Under the pieces are notes generated by a model, which was given only the letters and a program-made list of their open reading frames with translations, searched no databases and was not told the origin of the DNA. From assembly GCA_905178155.1 (NCBI GenBank), contig CAJINV010000039.1, positions 49,321 through 75,345 of the forward strand: a stretch of DNA of 26,025 nt, in the 5' to 3' direction. Positions 149-22,978 of the stretch are shown here, in pieces (position 1 is the first letter of the stretch; each line of letters opens with the position of its first letter). A program made the translations under genes and the position numbers. The stretch is from Amoebophrya sp. A120. Its lineage: Eukaryota; Protista; Dinoflagellata.

Positions 149-346
149 CAACAGCGAGCTTAATGGAAGACCTTGCTCCGTAGAACCACAAGAAGAGCGC
201 CTTAACCTTACCAGTTTCGCTGCTGGACATGTTGATGATACTGGCAAATATTTATAGATTTGTAGGTATCCACACACTATTGTCGGTGATATGGATTGGT
301 GCTATGAATTGCAACAGCGACTATTGAGTATTGTGCCTTTTGCAAA

Positions 347-3142
347 ATGACCGCTGCACCGTTTTCAGCTTGTGTAGACCTCCGCGTCAGAGACGAGTCC
401 GCTACCGAAAACGAGCTGCACAACGCACCGCGCGGCGTGGGACGCCAGGAATCAGTTGAGGTTCTGCATCCCCGGCAAGATGGCGATGTCGATCGCTGCG
501 TCACAGTTTTCAACCTTGCTGGCGATCCAGTCTGCCGAATCAAACGCACATCCAAAGCAGCAAATGATCCGCACGGCCTGGATAGCGCAGTCAGCACGTC
601 CGAGGTTGCAAAGCATGGAGGTCTCCCTTCGAGTCTTTTGAAACAAAAAAATTCTATCAAGGAACGGAATGCATCCGAAAGCATCCCAGCAAAAGAGATC
701 GACGCCACCTCACTAGCTTCTGACTCGAGGCTTTTGCTGCGAAACATAATGGAGAAAGTCGAAGCTGCCACCGGCTACGCCGCCGAGGACCACTCGTACT
801 TTTGGCATTACGAAAAGGACCAGAAAAAAATCGAAACCGGCACATCGTCTTCTCATGATGATGTCGAGGAAGCCGACGACGATCACGAGCAGCTGGCTGA
901 GGACGCTGCAGATGACTCATCAAAGCTTGACTTTTTCTATGATCCACTACTACCAATTCCAGAAGAGGTCGCAATGCTGTCTGTCATTTTTGACAAACGC
1001 GCTTCAAAAACCCTAGAGTGGGTGTCTGAGCATGTAGAGCAGCAAGTCAAATTTTCTCTTGGCGATAGCATCAACTGTGGTGGGTACGTTCCTGAGCAGG
1101 CAGCTTTTTTGGTCGAGGATCGCGACCAAGGGCCGAAGCACGAACAGGAGCGCGAGCAATTGCAAGCGGATTCTGAGGAGGCCAATGTCAGCGACCCGAC
1201 AAGAGGTGGACGACCCTACTACCTCGTTAAGGTCGTACAGCACATGTATCCCGAGTACCGCAAAAACGAATCATTTTTGGCGAAATTTCTAACAACTGCC
1301 ATGCCGATGTTTCTTGCCCCGTCACTGAATCCGCTGTCCTTGCCGTGGGATTTTGCGCGCCTCTTTGCCTCAAGCAAGCAGCGCGCACTTGTTGCATGCA
1401 AAGCCAATGGACTTGCGTTGAAGCATTTGTGCTCTGCACTTCGCGATGACGTGGAGGTTGTGCGCACGGCGGTTTCCTGCGACTGGCGAGCGTTGCAGTA
1501 TGCCTCAGAACGGGTTCGGGAAATGGCCGATGCGCAGACTGTTTCCGACGCGGCGCGTCAGTGCGGGTGGGCCTTAAAGTACTTCGCAGCCGACTCAAAA
1601 GCAAGTCCTGAATTGGTCCGAACTTGCGTGCGGCATAAGCCTTGGGCGATCCAGTATGCCTCCGAGGGCCTTTGGGACGACAACGACACCATGGCCTGCG
1701 TGGCTAAAATAGACGGCCTTCCTGCTCTGAAGTACGCGTCACACCGATTACGAGCCAGCGAATGGCTGGTGAGGCTAGCGGTGCAGACCAACGGGCTAGC
1801 AATCAAGTTCGCCTGCAAAGAGGTTCGGGCGAATTACGAGATCGCACTTCTTGCCGTCCGCAATAATCCATACGCAGTTCGGTACTTGGCGCATGAGTTG
1901 CGCCGAACCAATCGCGAGCTTCTCAGCACAGCACTCGACGTCTACACAAATAATGAGGAGAAGCGCGCCGCCCTTGATGACATCTACGGGCAGAAATTTT
2001 TCTGCGAGAAACTGCACTACAGCGTTATCACGTGTCACCGCGGGCCGTGGCACTGGTTTCCCGAGTGGGACGGACGGCATCTAAAGCATGTGGATTTTCG
2101 TGGGCTTGTTGAGCATCATTGTGACTCCTGGTGTCGTGAACACCATCACTCACATCGCGAGGCGGACCCGCCTCATGACGAAGACCATTTTGCAAGTCAG
2201 GACGAGCCTGCACAGGTTCCTGATTTGCAAAACGGAAACGAAATGCACGCGAATCTTCCGGATGGGGACCTCGCCCGCACTCACGGTGCTCAGCCGCCTC
2301 CAGAGCTCGGACTAGAAATCTTGTCCAGTGCTAGTCGAGAGCTACGAGACGACGAAGAATTTGTGACTCTTTGTCTTGAAGCGAGTCCCGCGTGCTTCGA
2401 ATTTGCGAGCTCCAGAATCCGAAGTAACGGTCGCTTTGCTTCTCACGCCGTTCGAAAATTTTGCAAGGGGGATATTGTGGTGGAAGAACCTGCTGACGCT
2501 GGAGGCAGCGATTTGATTGACAGATATGACGAGCGCAGAGAGCTTACGGATGCGTGTCCAATGCGGTTTGCCGGCGAACATCTACGAGCCGACGCATCCT
2601 TCCTGCGAGCAGTGCTTTTCGATGAGAATATATTAATGTCCTCCCTAGAAGCTACAATCATCCTCTCCCACGCGGACGAGAAAACAAAGGCAGCTTTCTA
2701 CGGAGAAGACGTAGAGTTGTCGACGCAATTTGCTCAGCGGTATCCGACTGCGCTTCGGTGGATGCCCAGAGGCTTCAGGCGGGATCGAGAAATAGCGCTT
2801 CAAGCGGTTCGCGCAAACGGGGAAGCGATCAAACACTTCGGAAGCCGCATCAAATCTGATCGCGAGGTAGGTTTCGTGGCCGTTTCTCATGAAATGGAAA
2901 ATATTTTCTGCCCCTGGACACTCGAATACCTGCACAAGCGGCTACGCCGCGATGAAGGTATTGTGCGCGCTGCGATTTGCAGAAATGTACATTCCCTTCG
3001 CCACGCATGCCGATATCTCCGAGGTACTCCTGAAATCGCTTTTCTGGCTGTGTCAAAAGTATCCCGCGGAATTCAAAAAATATCGGTGCTCACTTGTTTT
3101 TGTACGTCGCAATGTCGCGCATTGTCTGGACAGGATGCATGA
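347..3142 (+). CDS. DUF4116-repeat protein A, main exon (true exon end probably ~3058); N-terminal split ubiquitin-like header
   Basis: 931-aa ORF with many DUF4116-type units (NGLALKHLCSALRDDVEVVRTAV, DWRALQYASE, NGLAIKFACKEVRANYEIALLAV, DREIALQAVRANGEAIKH). Paralogous to 12393 and 22979. Repeat character ends at IAFLAVSK (3058). Confidence 0.85.
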   Translation: MTAAPFSACVDLRVRDESATENELHNAPRGVGRQESVEVLHPRQDGDVDRCVTVFNLAGDPVCRIKRTSKAANDPHGLDSAVSTSEVAKHGGLPSSLLKQKNSIKERNASESIPAKEIDATSLASDSRLLLRNIMEKVEAATGYAAEDHSYFWHYEKDQKKIETGTSSSHDDVEEADDDHEQLAEDAADDSSKLDFFYDPLLPIPEEVAMLSVIFDKRASKTLEWVSEHVEQQVKFSLGDSINCGGYVPEQAAFLVEDRDQGPKHEQEREQLQADSEEANVSDPTRGGRPYYLVKVVQHMYPEYRKNESFLAKFLTTAMPMFLAPSLNPLSLPWDFARLFASSKQRALVACKANGLALKHLCSALRDDVEVVRTAVSCDWRALQYASERVREMADAQTVSDAARQCGWALKYFAADSKASPELVRTCVRHKPWAIQYASEGLWDDNDTMACVAKIDGLPALKYASHRLRASEWLVRLAVQTNGLAIKFACKEVRANYEIALLAVRNNPYAVRYLAHELRRTNRELLSTALDVYTNNEEKRAALDDIYGQKFFCEKLHYSVITCHRGPWHWFPEWDGRHLKHVDFRGLVEHHCDSWCREHHHSHREADPPHDEDHFASQDEPAQVPDLQNGNEMHANLPDGDLARTHGAQPPPELGLEILSSASRELRDDEEFVTLCLEASPACFEFASSRIRSNGRFASHAVRKFCKGDIVVEEPADAGGSDLIDRYDERRELTDACPMRFAGEHLRADASFLRAVLFDENILMSSLEATIILSHADEKTKAAFYGEDVELSTQFAQRYPTALRWMPRGFRRDREIALQAVRANGEAIKHFGSRIKSDREVGFVAVSHEMENIFCPWTLEYLHKRLRRDEGIVRAAICRNVHSLRHACRYLRGTPEIAFLAVSKVSRGIQKISVLTCFCTSQCRALSGQDA

Positions 3143-4925: not shown

Positions 4926-5753
4926 CTATCGTGTGATATTTTTCCATAGTCCTAGTGGGCAGAGCCGCCCTCAACGAGAGAAGTTTTCGACTGTCGTTTT
5001 TTTCGGACAAATATGGTTTATCCTGTCAATTGCTTTTCGTGAATCTGAATCTCTCTTTTTGTTGTGTCCCACCGACCACAAAGGTCTGCATTCGACGTCC
5101 AGAGACGCATCACTACACTTCGAACTCATGTATTCTGTCGTATCCGGTCGTGAATGGATGTCGTAGTTCGGTACAGTTCTGTTGACCGAGCGTGTCTAGT
5201 TAGGAAACTCCTTCTACCCCGCGCACGCGCGTCTCCTCCTAATTAATGTTTCCAAAAAATGATTGCATTGAGTGATGACTAAACGGAATTATTCGGACAT
5301 TCCTCGGAAGCAGCTGAAGATGTCGGACGAAAGGCACTGCCTAGATGAAAATAGTAAGTGAAGACGAAGAAGAAGCTCAAGCAACATTAGAAGCGGCCGC
5401 GATCAATGATCCTCCTTTTTTCAGATGCAAATGCGGGACAAGTACAAAAGCGACTCAATTGTGAATCGTTTAGCCCCATGGGATCTTACAGATTTGAGAT
5501 CAAAGCTAAGCAGGAAACCAGACGGCAGAGGATCACCTTTGTATCGAGAACCTGGCTGCGATGTTGGTGCGACAAGAAAAATGCTTCCTCTAAATTCGAT
5601 GTTGCAAACGACAGGCGGCTGTGTACACTCGACTACATTATTGGAGCTTCTTTGCGAAGAAAAACCCCGCTCCTCAGCAAACATTCCATTTCTAAGTACC
5701 CCCGGGCCTGTCGAATTAGTAAATAGTATATAATACAAGCGCCACAGCAAAAC

Positions 5754-6941
5754 TTGGAAGCAGATGGCGACGAGGGCCAGCCAATTTGTGTAGAAGCGGG
5801 CGCCCATCTGGACGAGCTAGCCATGGGGCCGGATTTCGACTCTGTAGAGGAGAAGAAGGAGATGATGGAAGAGGAGGACGTGCTGGAGTTTGGCGACTAT
5901 CAGTGGGTACGCAAGCCGAAACTTGACTTGCTCTTCGCGCATGGGGTAGGAATCCTCATCCTAGATGAGAAACTGCGGGCCGAAGTGCAGGCGGATCAGC
6001 TACATACAGCGGTGGACGCAGTGAGATCACGGCCGCGAGTCTTGTCGCTATTCCTGCGGGAGCTAGCGGTAGTCGCTTGCTATGCCCCCACCGCGGGATC
6101 GCCAAGGGAAGACATGGCGGCATTTGACGGCAATTTTACGAAGGCAATAAGAGAAACGCAAAAAATGAAGCAGCACAAGTGGAAAACCAAGATTATCGGC
6201 GCCGATTGGAATGCACAGGTGGGGACGCGACTCTTTGGCGGGTCTATCATAAAAGGGCAGCACGGCCCTGCGACATCGACGCCGCGCGGGCGACAGTTTG
6301 CGACGACGATGCTGGCTCTAAACATGGCGCAGCCAGCCAGCCACCTGGAGCTCCCGTCCTACAGCACGCATGATGGAGGGAACGAGCTAGATTATTTCTT
6401 GGTGCCAGGTCAGCAGCTTACCAAGGTCCTAGGATACCGCATTTTTGACGCTAATGGGGTGCAAGAAGATGGAACTAGACTGGCCGTGGCGAGATTCGAC
6501 CATCGGGCGGTGGAGATGGATACGGCCGTAAAAACGAAGAAGCACTTGAGACATGAGGGAGAACTGCGAAGATTATCTACGTTTGGGCTGATGACGAACC
6601 CCCCGGAGGCACTGCTGACGTTTTTCAATGAGGATCTGCGTGCCAGAATTGAGGACAAGGGGGGCCGTGACGCCTTCAGCTTGGAGGATTTCCGCGACTT
6701 CTTGGTAGACAACACGCCGCACTTCATCGGGAAAACAAAGAAGGAGGCGCCGGCGAAGGACCTAGATAAATACGCAGAAAGTGCGAAAACTCGTTCAAAA
6801 ATGTGGTCGCTCTTTCGTGAAATGGACTTACTCAAGATGGGCCGAAGATGTGAGATAACTCCTGCCCAGGCGGCCAAGCAGTATGCTGCTGTCTGTGGGA
6901 AGCACGCCGATACGGCCGGAGCCGGACACCCTGCCAATTGA
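5754..6941 (+). pseudogene. LINE ORF2 5' part: APE/EEP-type endonuclease
   Basis: Motifs GVGILI, ACYAPT, IIGADWNA (GDFNA), ELDYFLV (IDYIL) and FDHRAV (SDH). The N-terminal QET motif is not visible. The frame shifts at ~6890-6940 into the RT frame. Confidence 0.85.
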
Positions 6942-8349
6942 AGCGGAGTTACCCAAGTACATCCAGCCCCTGACGCCCGAAGACCTGGAAGAATTGGACA
7001 AGCCCCCGGACGTATTTGAGGTGGAAGAAGTTGCGAAGGCGGTGGCCGCCGGGGGAAAAGCGCAAGACGCTTGTGGACTACAGGGAGGCATCCTGAAGTT
7101 TTTGGACCAGGACTCGCTCGAGATTCTCACGACCATCCTGGCCAAGGAGTTAGGCACGCGAAAAATGAGTGAACTGGGCGAAAGAATGCGGCTCTGCCGA
7201 GATACGCCGCTACTCAAGGGCAAAGGATCGCCAAAAAACCCGGATGGGTGTCGTTTTCTCGTCATTTCGCCGCCTGTAACGAAACTGGTGGTAAAGCTGT
7301 ACTCGGATCGATTATGCCGACTTTTAGAGGATAAGGGATATTTCTGCGAGTCCCAGTTCGGATTTCGGGAAAGCAGGGGAACGATTGAGAGCCTCGCTAT
7401 TTTCAACAAACTACGGCAGGACATGGCGCACTACGGCGAACATGGCATGGCGAGGGTATTGGTGACGCTTGTGGACTTGAAGAAGGCATTCCCAAGCTTG
7501 GACAAGCGAGCAATCAGGGGAACGGTCCAGGCACTTAATCTGCAGAACCGTAAATGTTGGGAAGCGATAGAAGCAAGCCATCGGAGCGCAATCCATGAAT
7601 TTCGAGACCCGGACAACAAGAACATGCCGGGCGAGCGGTTCACATTAGAAAACGGAACGAAGGAAGGCTGTGTGTCGTCGCCCCTGGTGTTTGTGATGGT
7701 GTGCTCCGCGGTCATGAAACACTTCCGGCATAAACTCAAGGCGGAGCAGCTGCAAAAATCCAAACCGGCAGGAGTTCAACTCCGCACGAGCCCGCGGGCT
7801 TTGTGTTGGAACAGGGTCGACCGGTTGTATGCGTATGTCTTCGAGTCGGGTGCCCAGGCGGCGGAACAGCAGCAGCAGGAAGGGCCTGGCGCTATCGAAA
7901 TGGAGACGGTTTTCAAAGCTTTGACGACCTTGCTTTTTGCAGACGACACGACCCTCCTGGAGCTAGAGCGGCGGCAGCTTCTGGAGAAGCTGGCGAAGGA
8001 AAACGAGGCGCGGGAAGAAAGAAACAAAAAGAAGAAGGCTGGGGAAGAACTCGAAGAGCCCCTTCCATCGAATGCGATGAAGGTTCTCTCGGAAGTCCTT
8101 TGGGAGGCGGGCACGTCAGAAAACAAAACCAAGCGCATAACCAACGACATCACGGAAATTGTAACGCGGAACCTAGGGCAGAACACGGACCCGATGGAGG
8201 ACGTTCGGCAAAAAGTAAAAAAATCCTGGCGCGCGTACTCGTCACTACGACAGAAGATCAGCGGGGTCAGTGGCATACACTCGAAAAGACGCGGGGAGCT
8301 GATAATGGTGATGATCAGAAGCGTCACGACCTACGGCATGGCCTGGTAG
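6883..8349 (+). pseudogene. LINE ORF2 3' part: reverse transcriptase
   Basis: GKAQDACG, PLLKGKG..PDGCRFLVI (YRPISL), SQFGFRESRGT, LVDLKKAFPSL, GTKEGCVSSPLVF, LLFADD, NKTK, RNLG and RSVTTYGMAW (RTE-like LxYGxExW). The ORF stops immediately after the last motif. Confidence 0.92.
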
Positions 8350-8467
8350 TAGCGCGGATAATTGAAATCGTACGCCAACTTGGGCCCGTGCTGCAGAGGG
8401 CTGCTAACACCATGCAGACCGAGCACAAGAAGATTCTCAACTACGTCAAAGACCACTATGACGCTAT
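8346..8467 (+). CDS. 5'-truncated upstream exon of permuted-OTU gene copy 1
   Basis: VVARIIEIVRQLGPVLQRAANTMQTEHKKILNYVKDHYDA is homologous to 19140-19261. A GT donor at 8468 is in phase with the AG acceptor at 8706-8707 (240-nt intron). Confidence 0.65.
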
Positions 8468-8707
8468 GTATAGCAGGACTAGAATGTTTCTTGTTACTTC
8501 GTTGAGAGGCTGGGCCAGAGCACGTAGTCATGCCTCAATACGTATCATACAGATGATGCTCCGGTGCTGGGTTGTCTTCATCTCCTATTTGAGTCTTCCA
8601 GCAATTAGATGAGTCACACAATGACAGCAACAGCATCAAAATTATATTGAAGGCCAGGAATTATGTCCTGACACCAAACTTCTATGAAATTACTCACCTT
8701 TGTTCAG

Positions 8708-9077
8708 GATAAATTGGTTCGGTGGCAGACGACAGGATGAGGACCACGAGGAGTACGACCAGCGACTTTCGAACAAGTTGCAGGAGAACATTGAAACTCA
8801 GAAAAAGTGGCCGAAGTGGTCTGCGATCCCTCTGTGGGTCCGACAAGTGGACGGCGAAACGGTGCAGACCTACGTAAGATTGCAGTTGCAGAAGGTGCGG
8901 TCTTCAGGGGATCCGCCGAGCAACCAGCAGGCACCGAACAGCAGTTCGTCGTCTGGGGACACGAGTGGCAGTTCCCGCGGTAACGGTGCTAACTTCAACG
9001 CAACCCAGGGATACCAGGCACAGGTCCAAACATCCCCCGTAACTGTCAAAGAGACGGCTGAGGAGATTTCGCTGCGG
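8708..9077 (+). CDS. Middle exon of permuted-OTU gene copy 1
   Basis: INWFGGRRQDEDHEEYDQRLSNKLQENIETQKKWPKW...EEISLR is collinear with 19442-19811 of copy 2. It is interrupted at 9078 by the TIR element. Confidence 0.85.
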
Positions 9078-9247
9078 TATCCCACAGAAAAAAGCTGGCA
9101 GGTCACATTTGTACTGAAAAAATAAATACACAAAAAATCTGCGCTGCGTATCCTAAACAGCATACTATGAGGCCGCCCATGACAGATTTTTCTGTGTTTT
9201 CATTTTTGCATTACACATATGCCCTGCCAGCTTTTTTCTGTGGGATA
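9078..9247. mobile_element. 170-bp MITE/introner-like element with 25-bp perfect terminal inverted repeats and 5-bp target-site duplication TGCGG
   Basis: TATCCCACAGAAAAAAGCTGGCAGG (9078-9102) and its exact reverse complement (9223-9247). TGCGG lies at 9073-9077 and 9248-9252. The element is absent from the paralog (empty site at ~19806-19812). Confidence 0.95.
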
Positions 9248-10737
9248 TGCGGGCTTCGGGGGTCATGAAGGATTTGATCGAAAACGGAGCGATCATGCCC
9301 GCGGTTCAATTTGGCATCGGGCAGTTGAGCAAAAAAATGTGGCAGTCGTGGGACGACAAGGTCGATAATGAACTCCAAATCTTTCGATCAAAAACGCATC
9401 AGGCAATGGCGTTCAGCGGCAAGCCGGCGGCCCGGGCGCTTGTCGCCACGGTGCGTGATGCGGAACGCACCGCGATACTGGCAAAGTTCTCACCAAAGGA
9501 GCAGGCCAAGGTGAGGAAGATGCTGCTGCAGCAGGACCTGGACTCGGCGATGGATGCCGCGGGAGCCCTGGACCGCGGGGAGCCGGCGAGCCTCCACCAC
9601 ATCGGTGCGCTCACTGAAACGCTGCAGCAGCCCGTCGTGCTCCGCGACGAGAACCAGAATGTGCTCACCACCATCGGCAAGGGCCTCCCTGGTGCTCCGT
9701 GCAACGTCACGTATTATAAGGGCGAAAACGGCAAACCCGGACACTACGTGGCGACGAATGCAGCCGTGGGGGACGGGTACACCTCCCCCGGGAAGCCTAC
9801 CGGGAAAAATGCTTGCTTGTTCAATGCAGTGGCCGCGCAAGTGTATGGGGATCAGGGCAGAGGCGCACAATTGCGGGCCAAGACGGCTGCTCACATTCGG
9901 AACAACCCCCAGCGGCTCATGACAATTGCCAGTTCGATTCGCCGACACAACTTTTACAAGGGCGGCGCGCCGTCACTGATTCCAGATCCAGGGGGTGCCC
10001 CTTTTTGGCACCCAAATCAAGATATGCTGAATGCAGTCGCAGACCACATTCAAGCTCAAGGCGAGCCACGTCCAGATCCGGCAGATCTGGATATGCACTG
10101 GAATCTCCAGCCGCACTGGGATCCGCACTTTACACTGCGTGTAGGCGATCAGCGATTCGTGTATGGTGTTCCTCGTTATGCCCCGCCTGGTACCCTTCCA
10201 CAGGTTCGCGATGCGCCGGAGACACCAATTGCGAAAGCGGCTAATCATCTTTACAAAGCTTATGCGGTTGCAACGAAAACAAACAGTTTTGTCTCGGTGA
10301 CACAAAAAGCGGCTCCGCCTCCAAAAATAAGTTTTAAAGCGGCGCAAGCTGGACTTCAGTTTCTTGCAAAGACATCGTTTCCTATGGCGAAGAATGCTAT
10401 AGCTTTGACGAGTGGCCAAGCAAAAGCCAACGAGTTTGCGAAATATGGGGACCTTATGATGCCAGGTAACGTGGTCTGTGTGCGTAATACGTTTTCCAGT
10501 ACTCCAAAAAACGGCGGAAACACCCATGCGGCTCGTGCGCAATTCGCCGAACAGCACAATCGTCCTGTACCTCCACCGAACTTCATCAATAATTTTTTAG
10601 ATGATCCCCCTTTGGGAGCAGGACCACCGCCGAAGCCGAAGGGCCCCGCCTGGGGCGTCGCAAAGGCGAAGGGAGCACAACCGGCTACTGTGGCAAAGGC
10701 AAAGGGAGCACAACCTGCCTGGCCAGCTCAACCGTGA
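9247..10737 (+). CDS. Last exon (from 9253) of permuted OTU-like protease + KGG + variable C-terminal domain protein, copy 1
   Basis: HIGALTETLQQPVVL..CNVTYY..PGHY (His 9742-9744) precedes NACLFNAVAAQVYGDQ..LRAKTAAHIRNNP (Cys 9814-9816). FYKGG (GG 9961-9966) is followed by a divergent C-terminal region. Confidence 0.85.
   Translation: MRASGVMKDLIENGAIMPAVQFGIGQLSKKMWQSWDDKVDNELQIFRSKTHQAMAFSGKPAARALVATVRDAERTAILAKFSPKEQAKVRKMLLQQDLDSAMDAAGALDRGEPASLHHIGALTETLQQPVVLRDENQNVLTTIGKGLPGAPCNVTYYKGENGKPGHYVATNAAVGDGYTSPGKPTGKNACLFNAVAAQVYGDQGRGAQLRAKTAAHIRNNPQRLMTIASSIRRHNFYKGGAPSLIPDPGGAPFWHPNQDMLNAVADHIQAQGEPRPDPADLDMHWNLQPHWDPHFTLRVGDQRFVYGVPRYAPPGTLPQVRDAPETPIAKAANHLYKAYAVATKTNSFVSVTQKAAPPPKISFKAAQAGLQFLAKTSFPMAKNAIALTSGQAKANEFAKYGDLMMPGNVVCVRNTFSSTPKNGGNTHAARAQFAEQHNRPVPPPNFINNFLDDPPLGAGPPPKPKGPAWGVAKAKGAQPATVAKAKGAQPAWPAQP
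10657..10719 (+). repeat. Coding tandem repeat VAKAKGAQPA x2 (33-bp period)
   Basis: Units at 10657-10686 and 10690-10719 differ only by synonymous changes. Confidence 0.85.
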
Positions 10738-11066: not shown

Positions 11067-12392
11067 TAGCCTATATTGCGAAAGATGGCGCTATAAAGGT
11101 TTCGTGCGATACAGACGCGCAGCAGATTCAGCAAGTAAACCAAAAAGAAATATCAGAGGACTTTATTTCTCACGCGTCGAATTACTCGTTTTTTATGTAT
11201 GATTTAGCCGTTTACATTAACTCTCGCAGCTCTATGTAACTGCAACAGTGGAGATGATCAGAGGCACTAAAACTAAATACGCCATGAAAGTTGTACTGCA
11301 ACATGTAAAAAGTGCAGTCAACATAAAGCTCACAGGTCATTACTTAGTTCATTTTCAGAAAAATCGATCGGCTATACTCCCGTTCGCTCTTTGAGATATG
11401 CAATACTATCAAAAAGCAAAAGATACACACTGTCAATACCTCCTTCTTCACATGATTATACATTTTTGTTGTCATCAACACCAACAGTATGAATAGGCGA
11501 ATGTATTGTGATCATCGGAGGCTGATATTGTAGCACTATTTCTGGCCATTCATATTCATCGCATTGTTTCATTTACGTGGAAAATACAAGTCGTGGAAAA
11601 TAAAGAAAAAACGCAATAGATGGCTGGTTCGAAGCGACGGCGTGATGTATGATTTTTTTTCCTACGAGGGTGACATTATTGGTTTCGGTACTATTCATTT
11701 ATCGTCCGTCGTTTTAGACACCATTATTTGGTACTTGTAGAATTCAAAAGAATACAGCCCAGAATCAACGATACCAGTGAGCGCCCCCAACAAGCGACAC
11801 TCGAATTTCGAATCCCGACCAAAGTATTGATTCCAATATTTGCCTCGGGTTGTTCCGCTTCACATGAGAACCCAGATCCCAAGGACACCCTCAAATACAT
11901 GGAAACGTCGATGAAATGTGGAAGCTGAAGAAGATCCTCGCAAATCGATTTTCCTTGAAATTCTTGAAAATCCATGCAGGCGTCACAGCTGTTTATCCCT
12001 GTTCCAACGCATGCTCCTTCTCGTTCGCAGATGCGAGGTATCAAATCGAATGCTAGATCATATCCATGTGGACTATTGTGGATCAATAAGATTGGTAAAT
12101 ATTAGAAAATCCGACCCATCGGGTGTTTCACCCATTCACAGATGTACAAGCACCGCGCCAGTCAGTAAAATCCCTCTTAGCTTCGTATGTTGACATTGAT
12201 TCCTTTAGCTGTATCATTTTAGTGTTCGTTCCTTTCTTGACGGTATTTTTCATTGACTCGACTACATCGAAATAAATTACTGAAACAAAGGGCCGACCAG
12301 GCCAAAATAATTAAACCAAAGCTGACGAGTACATGAGGTGGTTCTCCAAACGCGACAAAAGTTCCAACGAGAATAAACTTTAATTGATAACA

Positions 12393-15107
12393 ATGGCACA
12401 CTTTCTCGCTCCGAGCTCGCATGGCACAGAGTATCGCAGATGCCAAGAGGATCCAGTGGCGCAGTTGTCCACTCTGACCCTAACTGATCTGGGAGGGAAC
12501 AGTTTATGTCGCATTGACCTGCCTTTAAACCAAGACTGCATTCTCTTACGGACTGTGAAGCGTCACCTCGCGGCTGCCCGCGGCCAAGACCCTTCCTTCC
12601 TGTTGGGCCAAGGAGTTGTTTTGGAGCGGAAGACTTTTCTAGCAGTCGTTAACGCGAACAAAAGTGTCATTCCAGTAGCATCATCCTCTTCTCCGCTCGA
12701 ACAGCCGACGACGGAGGGCGAAGCTCGTGTTGAGCCAGGTCTCACATCGCCAAAAAGACAAGGAGCTTTTTCAGACAGAGCTGCAGATGCCGGACCGCGT
12801 GCAATCAGTCATGTTGCAGCTTCCGTTGATACATCCGCATGCACAGCAACGGAGGCCCGCTTAGAGCCGGAGGACGAGGAAAAGTGTATTGTCCGGGACG
12901 GACGGTTTCCTATCCCTCTCTGGACAACTGACGGGGCGCGTGTTCGTGAGATCCAGGCCGTCTTTGATAATCGAGTGGAAAAGGCTTTTTCATTCGCCAG
13001 AGGATGCCTTCAGATGAATTCCGCAGATGTACAGCAACAGTTTTTACAAGATTCCGAACTGCAGTCATCATGTCCGAGTGTGACTGATCTCACAGTTGTT
13101 GTCCACTCAGACGCACTGGAAGGTCCGTGGGATGACCGCGATCTGCCGTCTGATATCGACATGATGCATTTTCGCGGATGTTGCTGCAACCTCGGAGATC
13201 CGAGTATAGAGGGAGGGACTCTGTGCCTTCATAAAATATTGCAGGACTTGTATCCGCCGGGTTTCGACACCACATTTGGGACGTGTGACTTCGAATTCCG
13301 TGAAGCTTTGGTGAAAGAGGCGGTAGAACCATCCGTGCGTTGGGACCCTTACACGAATCCTCAGCTGATTCAGATGGGAAGCACGGCATCACTCTTCCGT
13401 TCGAGCAAGGATCTCTGCATGCTTGCCTGCGAAATCAACGGGCTCACACTGCGATACGCAACGCCACAGCTACGGAACGACGCAGATCTTGTCCGAGTTG
13501 CTGTTGCAGCGGATTGGCGGTCCTTGCGATTTGCTAGCGGGCACATCAGGTCCTCCCTGACCTACGAAGATATTGCGCTCTGTGCCATACGGCAAAACGG
13601 ATGGGCATACAAGTATCTTCGTGGCGAACTTCGCCACCGCCATCCGCTCATCAAGTTGGCAATCGGACACAAGCCGTGGTGCCTGCGCTACGTGCCAGTG
13701 GAGCATCACGCGGCAATCGACTTAATTTCATCTGCTGCAGAGATAGACGGCGTTCCCGCTCTCAAATTCTGTGCGCATCATATTCAAACTGAAGAACTGG
13801 TGAAAGCAGCAGTCGTGTCAAACGGGCTTGCGCTGAAGTACTGCGCGCCAGAACTTATCAGCCGACTCGTAGTTGAGCTAGCGTTGCAGCAAAACCCTTA
13901 TGCGCTCCGCTTCGTCAATGATATCAATCTACGCAACGAGGCCGAGCTGCTGCTGAAACTTCTCGACGGGCCGAGTCCGATGTTGCGGACCAACTGGCAC
14001 CATTGTACAGACCATCCTGAGTCGGCGCTTCAGTTGGTGGACGTGCAGGGACGGAACGATGAATCAAAAGCAAAACAAGGGCACACAAAACCGACATTGT
14101 TCAGCTCTCCCCACCACGGCGACTGCCAAAACGGAGTAGTTCGCAGTACGGAAGCAGACTGTGCCCCTTTGCGCATTCAGGGATCACAGTCTACAGGAAG
14201 CAGCCTTGTTCCTCCGTGCCCGTGGACGCACCCATGTAGATGTTCCACGTGTCAACTAAGCCGTATGAAACTCGACCGCACTCCGGCCAGGTTCTCGAAA
14301 TGTTATCAAGCTAGCAATGATGAGACAGTCCGTCGGTATGCTTGCCTGTTGCAGCGCTACATCCAAGTATCTGACTTCTGCGGCGATGGGGAGCACATCT
14401 GCAACGCGGTGTGCCGACAGGAAAGCCACCGCTACCCCACTACCGACATCTTCAATGAAGATAACCTCGTCCTCTTGCACAATTTCGAGAACCTGCAGGA
14501 GGAAGACTTCGACTCGGTTCCAGAGGATCTTCCGACTCTGATTCTGCAAAACCTCCCTGCAGAGCATGCTGTTCGAGATAACGCGGAAATCATCCGTCGG
14601 TGTGTCCGCCTTGACGCCCTTTCGCTTGAGCACGCCAGTCCGCGACTTCGATCCGACCGCGGTCTCGTCAAAGAAGCGGTTGCTCAAAATCACGACTCGT
14701 TTCTTTTTGCCGGAGACGAACTCCGTCGGGATCCGGAATTCGTTGTGGAACTCATGGAACAAGGATGCGCTGAAATTTTTTGGAATGCCGATAAGGAGGC
14801 CGTACAAGATCTGTTGCTCTGGGGAAACGGTGCGCCAGAGGTCTCTTTGCGGGCTTTTTGCGCGTGGCCTTGTTTATTAGAATTTGCGAAGCCGGAGTTC
14901 AAGCAAGACAGCTTTCTTGTCGAGTCGGTTTTGGCAATCGACGGCGAAGCGCTGGAGTTCGTGGACGTTTCTTGTCGGCGCACGAAGCACTTCGTCCACA
15001 CGGCCATGAGAGCAGGAGGCTTCTTGGATCATGCCGACAAGGCATTCCACGACGATGCCCATTACGAAAATTCTCTTGATGTTGTCCTGTCATTGCATGC
15101 ATTCTAA
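12393..15107 (+). CDS. DUF4116-repeat protein B, main exon (ATG 12393; true exon end probably 15061); split Ubl header
   Basis: ~900-aa ORF with NGLTLRYATPQLRNDADLVRVAV, NGWAYKYLRGELR, DALSLEHASPRLRSDRGLVKEAVAQN and FAGDELRRDPEFV. Closely paralogous to 22979. Confidence 0.88.
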   Translation: MAHFLAPSSHGTEYRRCQEDPVAQLSTLTLTDLGGNSLCRIDLPLNQDCILLRTVKRHLAAARGQDPSFLLGQGVVLERKTFLAVVNANKSVIPVASSSSPLEQPTTEGEARVEPGLTSPKRQGAFSDRAADAGPRAISHVAASVDTSACTATEARLEPEDEEKCIVRDGRFPIPLWTTDGARVREIQAVFDNRVEKAFSFARGCLQMNSADVQQQFLQDSELQSSCPSVTDLTVVVHSDALEGPWDDRDLPSDIDMMHFRGCCCNLGDPSIEGGTLCLHKILQDLYPPGFDTTFGTCDFEFREALVKEAVEPSVRWDPYTNPQLIQMGSTASLFRSSKDLCMLACEINGLTLRYATPQLRNDADLVRVAVAADWRSLRFASGHIRSSLTYEDIALCAIRQNGWAYKYLRGELRHRHPLIKLAIGHKPWCLRYVPVEHHAAIDLISSAAEIDGVPALKFCAHHIQTEELVKAAVVSNGLALKYCAPELISRLVVELALQQNPYALRFVNDINLRNEAELLLKLLDGPSPMLRTNWHHCTDHPESALQLVDVQGRNDESKAKQGHTKPTLFSSPHHGDCQNGVVRSTEADCAPLRIQGSQSTGSSLVPPCPWTHPCRCSTCQLSRMKLDRTPARFSKCYQASNDETVRRYACLLQRYIQVSDFCGDGEHICNAVCRQESHRYPTTDIFNEDNLVLLHNFENLQEEDFDSVPEDLPTLILQNLPAEHAVRDNAEIIRRCVRLDALSLEHASPRLRSDRGLVKEAVAQNHDSFLFAGDELRRDPEFVVELMEQGCAEIFWNADKEAVQDLLLWGNGAPEVSLRAFCAWPCLLEFAKPEFKQDSFLVESVLAIDGEALEFVDVSCRRTKHFVHTAMRAGGFLDHADKAFHDDAHYENSLDVVLSLHAF

Positions 15108-15139
15108 TTCTTCTTGGGTCGTTACATCATTATATCAAG

Positions 15140-15172
15140 CTTTGCATCTGAGGATAATAAGTTGGTAGACAG
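15140..15172 (+). CDS. Predicted 33-nt micro-exon of gene B (FASEDNKLVD)
   Basis: Preceded by AG at 15138-15139. Followed by GT at 15173, in phase with the polypyrimidine-AG acceptor at 15330-15331. FA aligns with the FA after the equivalent intron of gene C. Confidence 0.45.
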
Positions 15173-15332
15173 GTACAGGAAAAATTCAGTTGAAAACTAC
15201 GGACCCAGATCGTGATATGGACGCTGTTGAGAGACGTGTCTATATGCATTTGCAACGCAACTGCGCACCTACAATAGTGTACTTATTTTCCTCACAGTTA
15301 ACGTGGTATAGTGCTTTTTTTCTCCAAACAGG

Positions 15333-16271
15333 ATGCAAAGACAGAGTTTTTTTTTGGATGAGAAACTGATACGGGAGCAAATAATTTCCAATGCAGCGAA
15401 ATTCAATGACTTACCGCGAGACGGCAAGTTGGTGCTTACGACTCGCCTTCAGCCCTACTGGGAACGGTTGATGAGCAGGAAACCGAGCAAATACTGCAGG
15501 GACGCAATCCTGTTGGAAGCTGCCGTGCGCCTCGGCATCGCAGCCTTGGAAAACATTCCCCTCGATCTTCCCCAAGATCTATTCCCGGGAATCGTTCATA
15601 ATATATGCAAACAAATACGGTTCACAAGGGGTCTTCAACACGGCTATACCGTGGCAAAGCAACTCACCGACATTCCGCCCGCGATGCAGGACGATCCATT
15701 GGTTCAATGCGAATTTTACGTTGAAGCGGTGGCACGTCGGGGTCGAAACCTCGAACGAGAAACGATCCTGATTGGACTGGTCACGACGCAAGCATTTTGT
15801 CACTCATTTTTTGTTTACATGGAGCTCGAGGATGAAGACTCCATGTTCTATTCGTCGAAGGAAGCTGCTGAAGAGTACGCACTTTTCACACTCCAGCAGG
15901 CTCCGTGGGGTGCAGAAGTTTACTTTTTGTTTCCCCGTGCCGTTCGTGAGTGCTCCACAATTCAAGATGCTTTTTTCACTCTGTGTGGCGAGCCGCTGGA
16001 AATCGGAAACTTGGTCGGGTTCGCTTTGATGCATTGCACTGAGCTTGCAAGAAACCGGTGTACGAAATCAAACGGAGCGTGGTCTACGTACGAGCGAAGC
16101 CGTAAAAGCGCGGTTCCAGAAGTTACGTGGAACGCGGGTGGGCTTCACAGCCCACTTGAGCAATATCTCAGATTACGACTGCCCTCGTGCCACAAGAGCC
16201 CTGAGAAAAATGCGCTTCTTAGCACAGCGGAAGCGCGTAGAAACAGACTGGCTGCGCCACCATTTCCCTAG
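15333..16271 (+). CDS. 312-aa ORF with degenerate DUF4116-like helical repeats; probably the terminal exon of gene B (acceptor at 15331)
   Basis: RDAILLEAAVRLGIAALENIPLDL and LTDIPPAMQDDP..FYVEAVARRG. TTTTTTTCTCCAAACAG lies directly upstream. Confidence 0.65.
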   Translation: MQRQSFFLDEKLIREQIISNAAKFNDLPRDGKLVLTTRLQPYWERLMSRKPSKYCRDAILLEAAVRLGIAALENIPLDLPQDLFPGIVHNICKQIRFTRGLQHGYTVAKQLTDIPPAMQDDPLVQCEFYVEAVARRGRNLERETILIGLVTTQAFCHSFFVYMELEDEDSMFYSSKEAAEEYALFTLQQAPWGAEVYFLFPRAVRECSTIQDAFFTLCGEPLEIGNLVGFALMHCTELARNRCTKSNGAWSTYERSRKSAVPEVTWNAGGLHSPLEQYLRLRLPSCHKSPEKNALLSTAEARRNRLAAPPFP

Positions 16272-17916
16272 CCCCAGTCTTTTTCAAACCTATGTGGAAT
16301 CAAGACAAACGAACAAGAACGCAGACCACTGTTAGGCGAAGAAGAGTAGTTCACAGCAAGGCGATTCCGGTATGCTGGATGAAAGCTCACTATTGAAAAT
16401 AAGATGTGTGTAGCGTCTTCCTAAGACCTTGTCTTGCGCAATACCAGTCTGCACTCACAGCTCCTTTCGATTCCGCCAAACGGCACAATGAGTTGGCGTT
16501 TCCGCAAGTACACGTGCAAGGTACGTATGTGTAATAAGCGGACGTGGATAATTTCCCTTTTTTGACTACTCAAACCGAAACCTGACACTGACTCTTAGCG
16601 TCTCTCCTGTATGATGATCATAGTGTAAAACGCAATAAAGAAGCAAGGCGGAGCTAGCAAACTACGCAGGTGAATGTGGATAATTTCGATATGACCACAA
16701 AATAAACTTTATTCAAGCGTGAATCTCGTCTCACTCTTGCTTTACCTGCAGGGGCTTCGTCTGAACGGGCTGCTGAGCAGTGCCTGGCATTTTTCTGCCA
16801 CGTTCGTCATAGGGCTACACACTGAGGAACACGATGGCGTTCTATCACTAATTGGATTCTGAGGTGTCTTGCCTACAACCCTCTTCGGTGACACGGTATG
16901 TTTGTGGCTCTGTATGTAGAGGATCTGAGAAGTACCGGTGGCGCTATGTTTCATATAAAAAGGCACAAAAGGAAAAGATGCAAACCCGAGGTCAGATAAA
17001 AAGGTCGGACAGCATCAGTAATTACGCTCACCAAAAATGACTAGAAATTATAATTAAAGTAACATTTATTTTCGGCATTTTTACCGATCATGAGCAGGGA
17101 AGGTTGATGCATTTACTATGCAAGCCCAGGAGTTGCATTTGGAGCACCATTTCATTCGTATAAATTCATTTGCTAATGAATGTATTACTGTAATCATGTT
17201 GATAATGAGCGCTACCATGGAGCGCGCCGCTGCTCCTCCGAAGATCCTTAACTGACTCCGCTGTCATCTGCAATTGCTTCGCATCATCAGAGATCCATCG
17301 GACACGGAATAAAGGAAAGCTCCCTCCGCGAAAAATAGCACCTACTAACTTGGGTAGCCACGACAGCGCAAGATGGAGCTGTCCGCGCCGAGATCAGGAT
17401 CATCAATTTTTGTGATGTCAATTATAGGCTGCTTTAGATAATCAAAGCACTCGCCGATGTTGCACAACGAACAAGACACAATTGCAACACAATTGCTGTC
17501 AGCGACCAAGTACTGAGTCACGGGAGCAGGCACCTTGATCGCGTGATGAGTTGTCGCAGGCACAAACGGTCGGCATTTCGTTGCAGGCGCATCGATGCTG
17601 TAGCGATTTCTGGTAGTTCATGATCACAAGGAAGATCTCTACCTCTCCTGCCGCTTGCAGCGATGTGATTATTTTCGCGGCATTGGTGGATATCTATGAA
17701 AAAAACACACTTGAAATTTTTGCAATCATTCCATGGCATTTCAGGTCCCGCCGCTTTTCCACCTGCCTGGTTCTGTCATCTTTATGACTTACTCTCATAT
17801 TTATGGAGGTACACAACGCTAGATAGTGTAGTCTCGAAAAGTCTTCTTGAGGTGTTTGTCTTCGATCCTTCTCCGATCTTCCTGAGTTTAGGATGGCAGG
17901 TAGAATTTTTTTTATT

Positions 17917-18068
17917 TTTGTTTAAACCATCTGCCCCAGACGTGAATTGGAAAGGGGCAGGACTGCCTAGTGTTCTTGAAACTCAGCATATTAATGAATA
18001 CTTGTCTGTTGCCATTTGTCGTGGTATGTGGGGGGACAAAAAAAGTGCGCATCTTATCAAATATAACG
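17917..18068. repeat. Second copy of the dispersed repeat at 1-148
   Basis: Same collinear blocks as 1-148. It ends ~50 bp upstream of ORF 18118. Confidence 0.85.
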
Positions 18069-18117
18069 TGGAGATATCGCTCTATAGCTTGTTTATTTCT
18101 TCAAAAGAAAAACGACA

Positions 18118-19089
18118 ATGCCGACGCTTTGCAGTCGGAAGAAGTTTGCCGCAGTGATGGTTTGCCTGCACCAATATTGTCACGCCGGTCAGCCACAACA
18201 AAAGTGCTGGCCTCTTCCAAATAAGTCGTTGCCAGTCCAGCGAGCAGAGTGCTGCGCGGACGACTCCGACGGGGAGACGAGGGGACACAGCTGCGCCGCC
18301 GACCTGGAAGAGGGTGCCCCGCCGGAGGAATCGGACAACGGCTGGAGAATGGCGGTGAACGGCTCAGGCGGCGGCTCAGCCAGCAAGAGTGGGGCCGAGC
18401 CAATTGCTCAGGAGAGCGAGGCTCTTCAGACGTCGAACAGAGCAGTGACTCCAGAAGAGCGAAACCGTCTGGAAATCGAAAACTCGTACCGCAACGAAGA
18501 GAGCGTGGGCCGGTGTCTCCAGCAAGCGGGGGCCGAGCGTGGTTTGGCTGCAAAGAAAAGATCCGATGAAAAAACACAGCAAGTGAGAGTGAGGCATGAA
18601 ACGCTGTATAATTCAGAAAAGAATGAAAGCACCGATATAGAGGCAGAACTAAAACAGCAAAGCGAAAGAGAAGAGGACGCGGAACTGAGGCACAGCGGAT
18701 ACTGTCCCCTTAACCTTGACCGTAAGCTGCCGCTTCTGTCTAGTCACGCCATGGCGAAGAGGATGCTGAAGCTGAATGGACATGAGGCAAAAGTCTGGGG
18801 CTCGAGTCGCAAAACAACTGACGCTGAGCGAGGCATCCCTTATGCTGATGAAAGCGAGCAAGTCTCCTACCGTGCAATGTTGCGATCCCGTAACAAGTTT
18901 TACCGATTGGTTGAGCTTGTCTGCAAGGCCTGCGAATTCACCTTCCGCTTTACCTTCGAAACGGATTTCGCGCCGGATGAGGTTTTCAAAAAAAAGCTGT
19001 TTGGACAATCACTGCAACGAGCGGAAATACGGCTCTGCGCCGCCCATGAGAAACCGATTCCTGTGAGAGAAAGTTTTTTCATTCCATAG
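18118..19089 (+). CDS. Hypothetical 323-aa ORF (charged/low-complexity N half, CxxC...CxxH near the end); possibly an upstream exon of OTU gene copy 2 or an unrelated element
   Basis: Long ATG-initiated ORF with coding-like composition. No recognisable family. Confidence 0.45.
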   Translation: MPTLCSRKKFAAVMVCLHQYCHAGQPQQKCWPLPNKSLPVQRAECCADDSDGETRGHSCAADLEEGAPPEESDNGWRMAVNGSGGGSASKSGAEPIAQESEALQTSNRAVTPEERNRLEIENSYRNEESVGRCLQQAGAERGLAAKKRSDEKTQQVRVRHETLYNSEKNESTDIEAELKQQSEREEDAELRHSGYCPLNLDRKLPLLSSHAMAKRMLKLNGHEAKVWGSSRKTTDAERGIPYADESEQVSYRAMLRSRNKFYRLVELVCKACEFTFRFTFETDFAPDEVFKKKLFGQSLQRAEIRLCAAHEKPIPVRESFFIP

Positions 19090-19098
19090 ACCTTCCAG

Positions 19099-19261
19099 GT
19101 CCGTTGGAAGTGTTAGTCCAGCTTTTGGAGATCAGCAAGGTAGCAGCGCAGATAACTGGAATTGTCCACCAACTTGGGCCAGCACTGCAGAGGGCTGCCA
19201 ACACCATGCAAACCGAGCACAGGAAGATTTTCAACTACATCAAAAACCACTACGACGCTGT
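19099..19261 (+). CDS. Upstream exon of permuted-OTU gene copy 2
   Basis: Putative acceptor CCTTCCAG ends at 19098. The exon encodes PLEVLVQLLEISKVAAQITGIVHQLGPALQRAANTMQTEHRKIFNYIKNHYDA. A GT at 19262 is in phase with the AG at 19440-19441 (180-nt intron), the same position as in copy 1. Confidence 0.65.
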
Positions 19262-19441
19262 GTATACGACTATGCTTCTTGTTGCTTCGTTGAGACGCTG
19301 GTCCATAGGTAGTCATGCCCCAATACGTATCATCCAGATGAGTCAGAAAATTTTTGCAACATCAAACTTAATATATTGAAGGCCAGGCATGTAGTATTTG
19401 TAATGACCGCAAACTTCTTTCAATGGCTCCTCACTTCTCAG

Positions 19442-21242
19442 GATTACCTGGTTCGGGGGGAAGCGTCAGGATGAGAACCAGGAAGAGTACGAGCAGCGAC
19501 TTTCGAACAAGTTGCAGGAGAACATTGAAACTCAGAAAAAGTGGCCGAAGTGGTCTGCGACCCCTCTGTGGGTCCGAGAAGTGGACGGCGAAACGGTTGA
19601 TACCTACATAAGGCTGCAGTTGGAAAAGGAACGGTCTGCAGCGGTGCCGCCGAGCAAGCAGCAGGCACATAGCAGCAGTTCGTCCTCTGGGGACGCAAAT
19701 GGCAGTTCCCGCGGTAGAGGTGCTAACTTCAACGCGACCCAAGGACAGCAGGCGCAAGTCCAAACTTCCGAGGTTACTGTCGAAAAAACGGCCGAGGAGA
19801 TTTCGCAGCGAGCTTCGGGAGTAATGACGGATATGATCCAGAACGGAGCGATCATGCCCGCGGTTCAATTTGGCATCGGGAGATTGAGCAACAAAATGTG
19901 GCAGTCGTGGGACGACAAGGTCGATAATGAACTCCGGATCTTTCAAGCGAAGACGCAGCAGGCGATGGCGTTCAGCGGCAAGCCAGCGGCCCGGGCGCTC
20001 GCCGCCACGGTGCGCAATGCGGAGCACGCCGCGATACTGGCGAAATTTTCACCGGAGGAGCAGGCCAAGATGCGGAAAATGCTGCTGCAGCAGGACCTGG
20101 ACTCGGCGATGGATGCCGCGGGAGCCCTGGACCGCGGGGAGCCGGCGAGCCTCCACCACATCGGTGCGCTCACTGAAACGCTGCAACAGCCCGTCGTGCT
20201 CCGCGACGAGAACCAGAATGTGCTCACCACCATCGGCAAGGGCCTTCCCGGTGCCCCGTGCAACGTCACTTTTTACAAAGGCAAGGACGGTGAACCCGGG
20301 CACTACGTGGCAACGAATGCAGCCGTAGGGGACGGGTACACTTCCCCCGGAAAGCCCGCCGGCAAGAATGCTTGCTTGTTCAACGCAGTAGCGGCGCAAG
20401 TGTACGGGGATCAGGGCAAGGGCGCACAACTGCGGGCCAAAACGGCTGCCCACATTCGGAATAACCCGCAGCAGCTGATGACAATTGCCAGCTCGATTCG
20501 CCGACACAACTTTTATAAGGGCGGTGCGCCGTCGTGTACTCGAAGCAATGATTGTTGGGTAGCAAACAATGACATGATTACCGCAATCCAAAACGCGCAC
20601 CCGCAAGCTCAGTTCGTGGCACTGCACCTAAATTGTCAACAAGACAAGACACCACACTTCACTATAAAGTACGGGCATGATGGACCGTTCGGGTGGAAGC
20701 AGGTATATGGCATGCCTCAGCCCGGAGACCCTCCGGGGCCTAAAGGTCAACCTACGGTGCATCCCAGGGGAAAGCATATGAACAAACCTCCTCCCTACGT
20801 TCAGAACGCAAACCAAGCCGCACTGCTTTCGTTCGCACAGCGCGTTTTTCCGATCGCGAAAGCCGCTCTTCGGGCAAACGGAGGGGCCGCGGCAGTAGCG
20901 GCGCAAAATATGAATGGCCCTGGAGACCTTTTGGTGCCTGCCAATAATGCTGTGATGCGGGCCACTTTTGCTCTACACGGAGCCCCAGGAGTCGGCGATG
21001 GGAACATAGCTGCTACAACTGCGTTCAATAATGCCGCAAATGCAGACCAGGTCAACAACGCGCCAGCTTTCAATCCGGATGTTTTCCTCAACGCACCACC
21101 GCCTGCCGCTGCAGCACAGGCACACCCAATAGCCAAGGTACCTGGTGGAGGTCCGAAGGCTCCCGCTTTGCAAGGCGTTTGGGCGAAAGCGCCACCTAAA
21201 GCCGCTGCGAAGCATCCACCACATGCTGGGCCAATTCCATGA
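19442..21242 (+). CDS. Last exon of permuted OTU-like protease + KGG + variable C-terminal domain protein, copy 2
   Basis: Uninterrupted paralog of 8708-10737. His at 20301-20303, Cys at 20373-20375 and GG at 20520-20525, then a divergent C-terminus. Confidence 0.88.
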
Positions 21243-22978
21243 CAGCTTCAACAAGCTGGACACCAACTACGCAGACGCTTACGCACAAAGAAGAAGAGTA
21301 AATTGCGGATACCTCTACAGCTTGATAGCTTTCGCTTTTTGGTTTGTCTCACCAACTGAGCCGCGGAGAAGTTCAAGTAGTTCACCGGTTTTCATCTCTT
21401 CCAACTATAATCGCAGTTTTCTTCTTTGGATACCTGCGAGCTGCATCCTTCCTCGCCCGGTGTAGGCGAATTCTTCTGTAGGTTTTCGCTTCGGCAGAGT
21501 AAGAAATAGACAAAAATGTCCGATAATAATCATACTTATATGTCTCTTCAGAAATCAAGATACTTCAACGCTAAACATAAAGAAGCATAAGAGCGGTTCG
21601 CTGCCATAAAAAGGAAGTAAGCCCTCCACTGACTTCGATATCATGTGTGGACTACGACACATTGGACCATTTTCTCTGCTTTTTTGTATGATTCTATATG
21701 ATTTCTTTAACCTAGCAGTGGAAGAAGATGACGCAAGAACGGCAGTATTTGCAAGTCAGTACTTTTTGTATGATATGATTTTTTTTCGGACCTGCCCCTT
21801 CTTCCGACTGCCGTAGACACAAGACCACCATGTGTACACCATGTTTCCTTAGAAATTGTACGAGAATGCCTATGATGTTTTAGGCTTCAAGAAATAGTTT
21901 TCGTTTCGTATTATACATAATGTATTACTAATGCTACGCGGAAAATATAAAGATCTTTTTGGGAACAGAACAAAATATCTTTCTGACACCAGCACAGAGT
22001 ACGTAGGATGACACCCATCAGATTTTGCATTATGCACGGCAGCTAGAGTGGTATGGATGGCATTCTTTTTCGTCGACAATTATTTCACAAAAAAGATAAT
22101 TTTTACAAAAATGGTGTTGTTTTCGTGGTTTTCCGGTCGGTGAACCGGTACCCCTGTCCTCCATACAAGTCTATGACACGAATAACAAACGACCACTGTG
22201 TTCGGTGAGACGGCAGGGGCTGAACTGCTTCGCTTTCTTTCTCGGTCCCCGAGTGATTTCGGTGTGAGTTTGTTTATGCTACGAGTGGAAATGAGATGCT
22301 TCCCAAATAATGCTGTTTCTGTTGTAATGCAAAGTTGCTTTGCATGATCCTCAAATTTGAATTTTACAAGAAGAACAAAAAAACAAAAATTCCGACCAAA
22401 TGATTGAACGACCAGTCCGATCGCGCTCGCGCATTCCTGAAAAGTCATCTCTGCGCACCAACCTATCTTGTTCGAAGCAAAGGATGATAAATGGCGCGAT
22501 CAAACAAAAAATGAAAATCACTCAAATTTTTTTGCTCATGTCAGGCCTTTTAGATCGGCGAAAAATATCATTAGATAGAAATCCCTTCACGCGGACTCGC
22601 TGCATACCCATGAAAAAATCACTTTCCACAAGACACCGACGAACATGATCGGCATGGCGAAATGAAAGCTCTCGCAGAAACCACAGTATGAGCAATGAGA
22701 GTGTAGTAGTTCTTAGATTGAATATCAATTTCGCACAACGAAGTCCTACCCGGGAGCTAGTGAAGCACAACGTTGAGCTTTGTTTTCCCTCATGGAAGAA
22801 CGACAGGTACAGACTGCATTCATATTGCGTGAGAAGAAATTGGAGCATCTACTTTTTGACTTCCTTTATCCCAACTACGTTCCTCGACAACGAGATAATC
22901 CGTATTTCGCACTGTGTACACTCCTCCCACATAGAAAGCTGCAATTGGTATTTATTTCATTGCTCCTCGGAATAAAGA

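Follow-up and report, generated by a model that had tools for sequence, protein, structure and literature searches.

An introner-type element in a 5'-truncated, likely silent gene duplicate of Amoebophrya sp. A120

The closest described counterparts of the element considered here are the introners of Amoebophrya itself. In the available part of the Farhat et al. 2021 study (PMC7789003) 29,850 introner elements, divided among 1,954 families, are reported for Amoebophrya sp. A120; they are bordered by direct repeats of 3-5 nt, carry inverted repeat (IR) motifs of 8-20 nt with the pattern TAT, 7 nt and then at least 3 A, and are RNA-validated introns, where a junction with at least 3 RNA reads served as the splicing criterion. 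According to the same part of that paper U1 snRNA was not detected in Amoebophrya, intron removal is modelled by an IR stem through which the two TSD copies meet, and it is still open how introns without GT-AG are removed and which transposase moves them. A set of 58 A120 families, mostly TIR (terminal inverted repeat) DNA elements with mixed non-canonical ends, are listed in supplement file 8 of Gozashti et al. 2025 (PMC12130899), one of the portions of this source at hand. In the accessible sections of Gozashti et al. 2022 (PMC9860276) introners derived from MITEs are described in Symbiodinium, Aureococcus, and Micromonas, together with introners that add codons to the host gene. In the openly available Amoebophrya introner literature nothing was found on the family of the present element or on strain-level polymorphism, and a search with the TIR motif of the element in the supplement files of PMC12130899 other than 13 and 14 gave 0 hits.

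The window, that is, the whole analysed stretch of 26,025 nucleotides of contig CAJINV010000039.1, contains a putative young introner that had been proposed by a sequence-only reading as an element with 25-bp perfect TIRs, a TGCGG duplication, and a 170-bp body. All three features were borne out (Table 1). The perfection of the TIRs spans exactly 25 bp, the arms pair across 60 nt, stops occur in five of the six reading frames of the element, and a long ORF is absent. Folded as RNA, the element forms a single hairpin of -81.6 kcal/mol (z = -8.05; equally stable shuffles 0 of 200), and it is the sole find of a scan of the window for inverted repeats with a TSD, in which 20 Markov sequences used as controls gave 0-1 hits each and 4 in all; according to these figures the structure is not a product of chance. 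A further TIR-like site was searched for in the window and none was found, and there was no match for the element in Rfam or for its TIR in viral contigs.

Table 1. Features of the element, its host copy, and the neighbouring paralog (window coordinates)
Feature	Position	Strand	Remarks
Non-autonomous TIR element	9078..9247	.	170 bp; GC 0.39; lacks an open frame; forms a single long hairpin
Left TIR	9078..9102	+	Perfect over 25 bp; 87% arm reaches 9137; starts with TAT+7 nt+A-run (A120 introner motif)
Right TIR	9223..9247	-	25 bp, perfect; arm from 9188
Left TSD copy TGCGG (5 bp)	9073..9077	+	Last G and the element's T form GT at 9077
Right TSD copy TGCGG	9248..9252	+	
First surviving exon, host copy 1	8346..8467	+	P0001 residues 201-241; internal ATG at 8412
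Canonical GT-AG intron, copy 1	8468..8707	+	240 nt (copy 2: 180 nt, 19262-19441); P0001 continuous across it
Exon part 5' of element	8708..9077	+	P0001 residues 242-365, 91% identical
Exon part 3' of element	9253..10737	+	Open to stop; OTU-like domain ~9520-9975; paralog-specific tail after 9974
Broken non-LTR retrotransposon (LINE)	5727..8349	+	RVT_1 E 4.8e-14 in 6859-8346; endonuclease-like frame ahead of it by eye; ends at copy 1 start
Paralog copy 2, element-free	19092..21242	+	Empty site AGCGA at 19807-19811

The family of the element is clearly abundant and mobile. Depth in the DNA run X1 adds up to ~15,000-23,000 over the element vs 21-45 on single-copy pieces, a value that does not give a copy number, and X1 contigs with foreign flanks leave the window sequence at the exact element ends (13 at 9078 and 27 at 9247). 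The window copy deviates from the family majority at least at positions 9198 and 9201 and is thus not brand-new. Two further copies, 90.6% and 88.6% identical, were retrieved by a pattern scan in another assembly (loci L001 and L002); each is flanked by its own 5-bp TSD (TGTAG and GAGGA), which makes a duplication of 5 nt in three of three copies including that of the window. Both additional copies split open coding frames, which are closed if the element is kept and reopened if it is removed, and in both the base before the element on the gene strand is A, vs G in the window copy. The consensus of the loose ends is GC-rich, hinting at coding flanks, but the effect proved only weak in simulation and is not used as evidence. 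With its TIRs, its TSD of fixed length, its short non-coding body, and its many copies the element bears the traits of a MITE, and its derivation from a DNA transposon, as was suggested initially, agrees with this anatomy (TIR, 5-bp TSD).

The removal of 175 nt, the element together with one TSD copy, can be placed in six equivalent ways with an identical product, the interval ends being TG..TA, GC..AT, CG..TG, GG..GC, GT..CG, and TA..GG. As had been stated before, none of these placements gives GT..AG, and GC..AG or AT..AC ends are likewise found in 0 of 6, so the exact-removal interval has no canonical U2/U12 ends; yet 10 in-frame GT/GC..AG pairs lie near the element ends, and among them is the canonical GT9077..AG9230 (154 nt), which is off that interval. 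The predicted product was also confirmed: after the deletion the frame is open at 8688-10737 and reads EEISLR-ASGVM vs EEISQR-ASGVM in copy 2, and with the element kept it meets a stop at 9123. The use of this exact frame restoration as support for an intron did not hold, because, owing to the way in which TSDs arise, any transposon of this type, once taken out together with one TSD copy, leaves the original frame behind; the restoration demonstrates a clean insertion and by itself is no evidence for splicing.

The host protein has a single close homolog, P0001 (GSA120T00025530001; P0001/P0002) of Amoebophrya sp. A120, which is element-free and closer to copy 1 than copy 2 is, with 256 of 271 aligned residues identical. 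Letters in X1 agree with the residues of P0001, and X1 also has pieces identical to the window, which points to A120 or a nearly identical strain as its source. Since both paralogs, copy 2 and P0001, are without the element, the insertion is later than the gene duplication, in accordance with the original proposal. The claim that copy 2 preserves the empty site stands only in part: copy 2 is indeed element-free, but its AGCGA shares three of five bases with TGCGG, and the closer element-free paralog P0001 lies elsewhere.

The likeness of copy 1 to copy 2 and P0001 starts abruptly at 8345, where the broken LINE stops, and this junction is bridged by an X1 contig with 0 letters other than those of the window. 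Residues 1-200 of P0001 were sought upstream of 8346 with no match save one chance hit (E 5) inside the LINE. The distant homologs of the host reach a length of 3,700 aa and carry SecA-DEAD and TPR domains; their C-terminal end corresponds to the host region, and among the 69 HSPs of 34 such homologs none fell outside the two window copies. The absence of P0001 residues 1-200 and of the other homolog parts from the window identifies copy 1 as a 5'-truncated fragment. The alternative origin of the shared region as the LINE's own 3' end was rejected, since P0001 continues upstream with unrelated sequence and the distant homologs are SecA-like. Copy 1 is probably a truncated pseudogene and likely silent. 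Gene models of copies 1 and 2 were not found in the protein collection (30-1070 aa), which says little, since an exact look-up of window ORFs, the DUF4116 genes included (one query a codon early), also returned 0 of 7.

On balance the evidence favours, with some margin of doubt, an introner-family element lodged in a 5'-truncated and likely silent duplicate, where it is probably not a working intron; in live genes, the family itself is likely subject to splicing as a non-canonical intron. The course of events consistent with this reading would begin with an element having TIRs, a TSD, a hairpin, and many genomic copies, which entered the gene after the paralog split. A transposase encoded elsewhere would recognise the TA...TA ends and insert the element by a 5-nt staggered cut; an integrase-like enzyme is suggested as mobiliser by the note on family 38 in the supplement file of PMC12130899. 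In a transcript the ~60-bp stem may join both TSD copies, after the model given in the available part of PMC7789003, and the spliceosome would then cut within the TSDs, removing the element with one TSD without GT-AG. The host copy, which lies directly behind the broken LINE, begins at a point equivalent to residue 201 in its closest paralog, and as a presumed pseudogene fragment it would tolerate the insertion without splicing. The LINE and the element may have entered copy 1 in either order.

The strongest competing explanation, which is unlikely but deserves weight, holds that transcripts of copy 1 exist, arising from the LINE or the ATG at 8412 or carrying a spliced leader, and that the element is spliced out exactly as a young non-canonical intron. 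Copy 1 without its intron and element shows no stop or frameshift at 8346-10737, the upstream GT-AG intron is intact, the element ends are of A120 type, and dN/dS between copy 1 and copy 2, a value that sums both lineages, is below 1 in all three segments (0.39, 0.33, and 0.12); the open frame, the ATG at 8412, and these ratios count against copy 1 being long dead. Against this stand the missing residues 1-200 of the closest paralog and the broken LINE that abuts the first exon, which keep live the case that the sequence-only reading had named against itself, a silent copy 1.

The joined RNA contigs also fail to serve a working intron at this locus. Of ten runs, none of those listed being recorded as RNA, the ones compared with the window were X1, X3, X4, and X8, and those compared with L002 were X1, X3, X4, and X5; at the L002 gene ordinary introns are still present in X1 and one of them is skipped in X3, so that X1 has the behaviour of DNA and X3 that of RNA. 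The junction expected after removal of 175 nt was indeed present as a 9073>9249 joint, in one contig each of X1, X3, and X4, but in each of these contigs the letters at 9032, 9036, and 9037 differ from those of the window. In the joined contigs seven of seven checked letters give the P0001 residue, three of the seven differ from copy 2, and in X3 three extra bases correspond to the extra Thr of P0001. The joint has the letters of P0001 and stands joined in DNA too, hence it is the form of the element-free third paralog, and its interpretation as splicing of the window copy was rejected. An RNA joint resembling splicing can thus derive from an element-free paralog, which calls for caution. Four X3 and five X4 contigs lie on the window, copy-1-specific letters occur in none of them, and the copy-1 tail is covered in X3/X4 only by a paralog contig at 90%; since contigs show presence and not absence, neither this result nor the sparse coverage of the element by RNA contigs is counted as silence. 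In X8 0 of 3,295,382 records fell on the window, a figure with no bearing on expression.

The view that the element is an ordinary disrupting MITE, of a family that is unspliced and merely knocks out the genes it enters, is improbable. It accords with the anatomy (TIR, TSD, no ORF), with related element sequence having foreign flanks in RNA contigs (X4 record 14), and with the fact that no spliced junction was tied to an element-bearing locus. It is opposed by the position of both other copies (2 of 2) in coding exons, by an end motif that, in the available part of PMC7789003, is that of RNA-validated A120 introners, and by the conserved WD40 gene in which the L002 copy sits. In this gene three IR elements were observed, at L002 1345-1525, 1753-1867, and 2591-2804. 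An X1 contig of the gene (~97% identity) lacks all three; the A25 ortholog runs uninterrupted over the insertion site of the L002 copy and is without the two of these three elements that could be aligned. Among the listed differences between L002 and X1 in one exon 14 of 18 are synonymous. A conserved gene with three exon insertions and mostly synonymous change suggests that the element class is spliced.

Presence/absence at orthologous sites, one more MITE trait, is thus displayed by the L002 copy and the two other elements, and the finding of three elements in one assembly but in none of the same sites of a close strain indicates mobility between close strains; the pattern suggests that introns are gained fast at the strain level. 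The RNA strain carries the empty site at L002, the element being absent from its DNA, so this comparison is silent on splicing of an element-bearing locus. Two side observations concern related elements: that at L002 1756-1864 has 109 bp, a 5-bp TSD (TGCTC), and no stop in frame, and in the A120 gene model P0004 such an element is kept as 36 residues of protein (residues 90-125), likely a missed intron in the annotation. A combined claim, that insertions of one A120-type introner family are going on at present in strains only ~3% apart and that copy 1 is live with the element removed by a hairpin-guided, GT-AG-free reaction, is rather unlikely, a little more so than a working intron in copy 1 taken alone. 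If it were true, the locus and its 95% identical element-free paralog would be a ready-made pair for testing splicing without detectable U1.

Very improbable is ordinary splicing of a transcript from GT9077 to AG9230 with 7 extra codons left: the pair lies in frame without a stop, and codon-adding introners are known (PMC9860276, in the accessible sections), but the GT needs the last G of the window TSD, where L001 and L002 have A, so it offers no family mechanism, and AG9230 lies within the stem. Least credible of all is an assembly chimera as the source of the element-bearing allele: among the listed X1 pieces the only contig covering 8938-9037 is the paralog's, with none carrying window letters there or bridging flank and element, but the 5-bp TSD is perfect, copy-1-specific X1 pieces with 0 other letters lie on both sides of the element (8444-8789, 10146-10330, and 10347-10635; 0 other letters in five of the eight listed pieces on the window), and contig assemblers presumably drop the flanks of high-copy repeats.

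Several features of the surroundings may be recorded here. Copy 2 matches P0001 only from residue 185 on, and the ORF upstream of it (window 18118-19092) is unrelated to the P0001 N-terminus and not in frame near a run of T at ~19074, so copy 2, too, may be a fragment or a chimera. The OTU-like domain of both copies (9520-9975 and 20079-20534) gives a weak Pfam OTU hit below the cut-off (E 0.014-0.023), and in eight of eight aligned sequences an invariant His (~9742) precedes an invariant Cys (~9814), so judging by residue order the domain looks circularly permuted. The paralog tails (9975-10737 and 20535-21242) differ after a sequence common up to 9974, and an RNA contig has a third tail. The host copies alternate with three long intron-free DUF4116 repeat ORFs (308-3142, 12384-15107, and 22976-25774); similarity in DNA is ~65% between the second and third of these ORFs and 81-90% between the host copies. 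A non-coding stretch ~76% alike is found at 1-143 and 17917-18065, upstream of two different ORFs.

As for significance, the class is published and abundant, with ~30,000 elements reported, so one more element changes little. The window copy adds a clean anatomy, a 5-bp TSD and TA...TA ends, as well as a hint of strain-level intron gain; by itself it answers neither GT-AG-free removal nor the identity of the transposase. The most useful by-product is the set of three elements in one gene, present or absent between close strains.

In comparison with known systems, the element resembles A120 family 38, a Ginger-like family marked '5-bp TSD, TA/TA Termini' in the supplement file of PMC12130899, in both of these characters, but family 38 is ~810 bp long with ORFs similar to LTR-element proteins, and the present element has 170 bp and is non-coding. 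With the introners described in the accessible sections of PMC9860276 it shares the nature of a non-autonomous TIR element with TSDs, of the kind that turned into introns there with TSD bases partly used as splice sites; those introners, however, carry or co-opt GY/AG sites, which the window element lacks at any exact-removal placement. In relation to the A120 introners, so far as the available part of PMC7789003 describes them, the perfect IR of 25 nt exceeds their motifs of 8-20 nt, and they are RNA-validated, whereas the window copy is known from its DNA anatomy and its host looks 5'-truncated. The agreement with them is otherwise close: the inverted repeats that join the ends, the TAT+7 nt+AAA motif (at least 3 A in the published form), the boundary repeat of 5 nt within their range of 3-5 nt, the hairpin, the lack of GT-AG, the repetition, and the organism (or a nearly identical strain) are the same, and the assignment to Amoebophrya introners with TIR and TSD made at the outset proved right. 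By every DNA feature the element is an A120 introner element, a further member of a published and abundant class, and the copy at 9078-9247 is an ordinary example of it.
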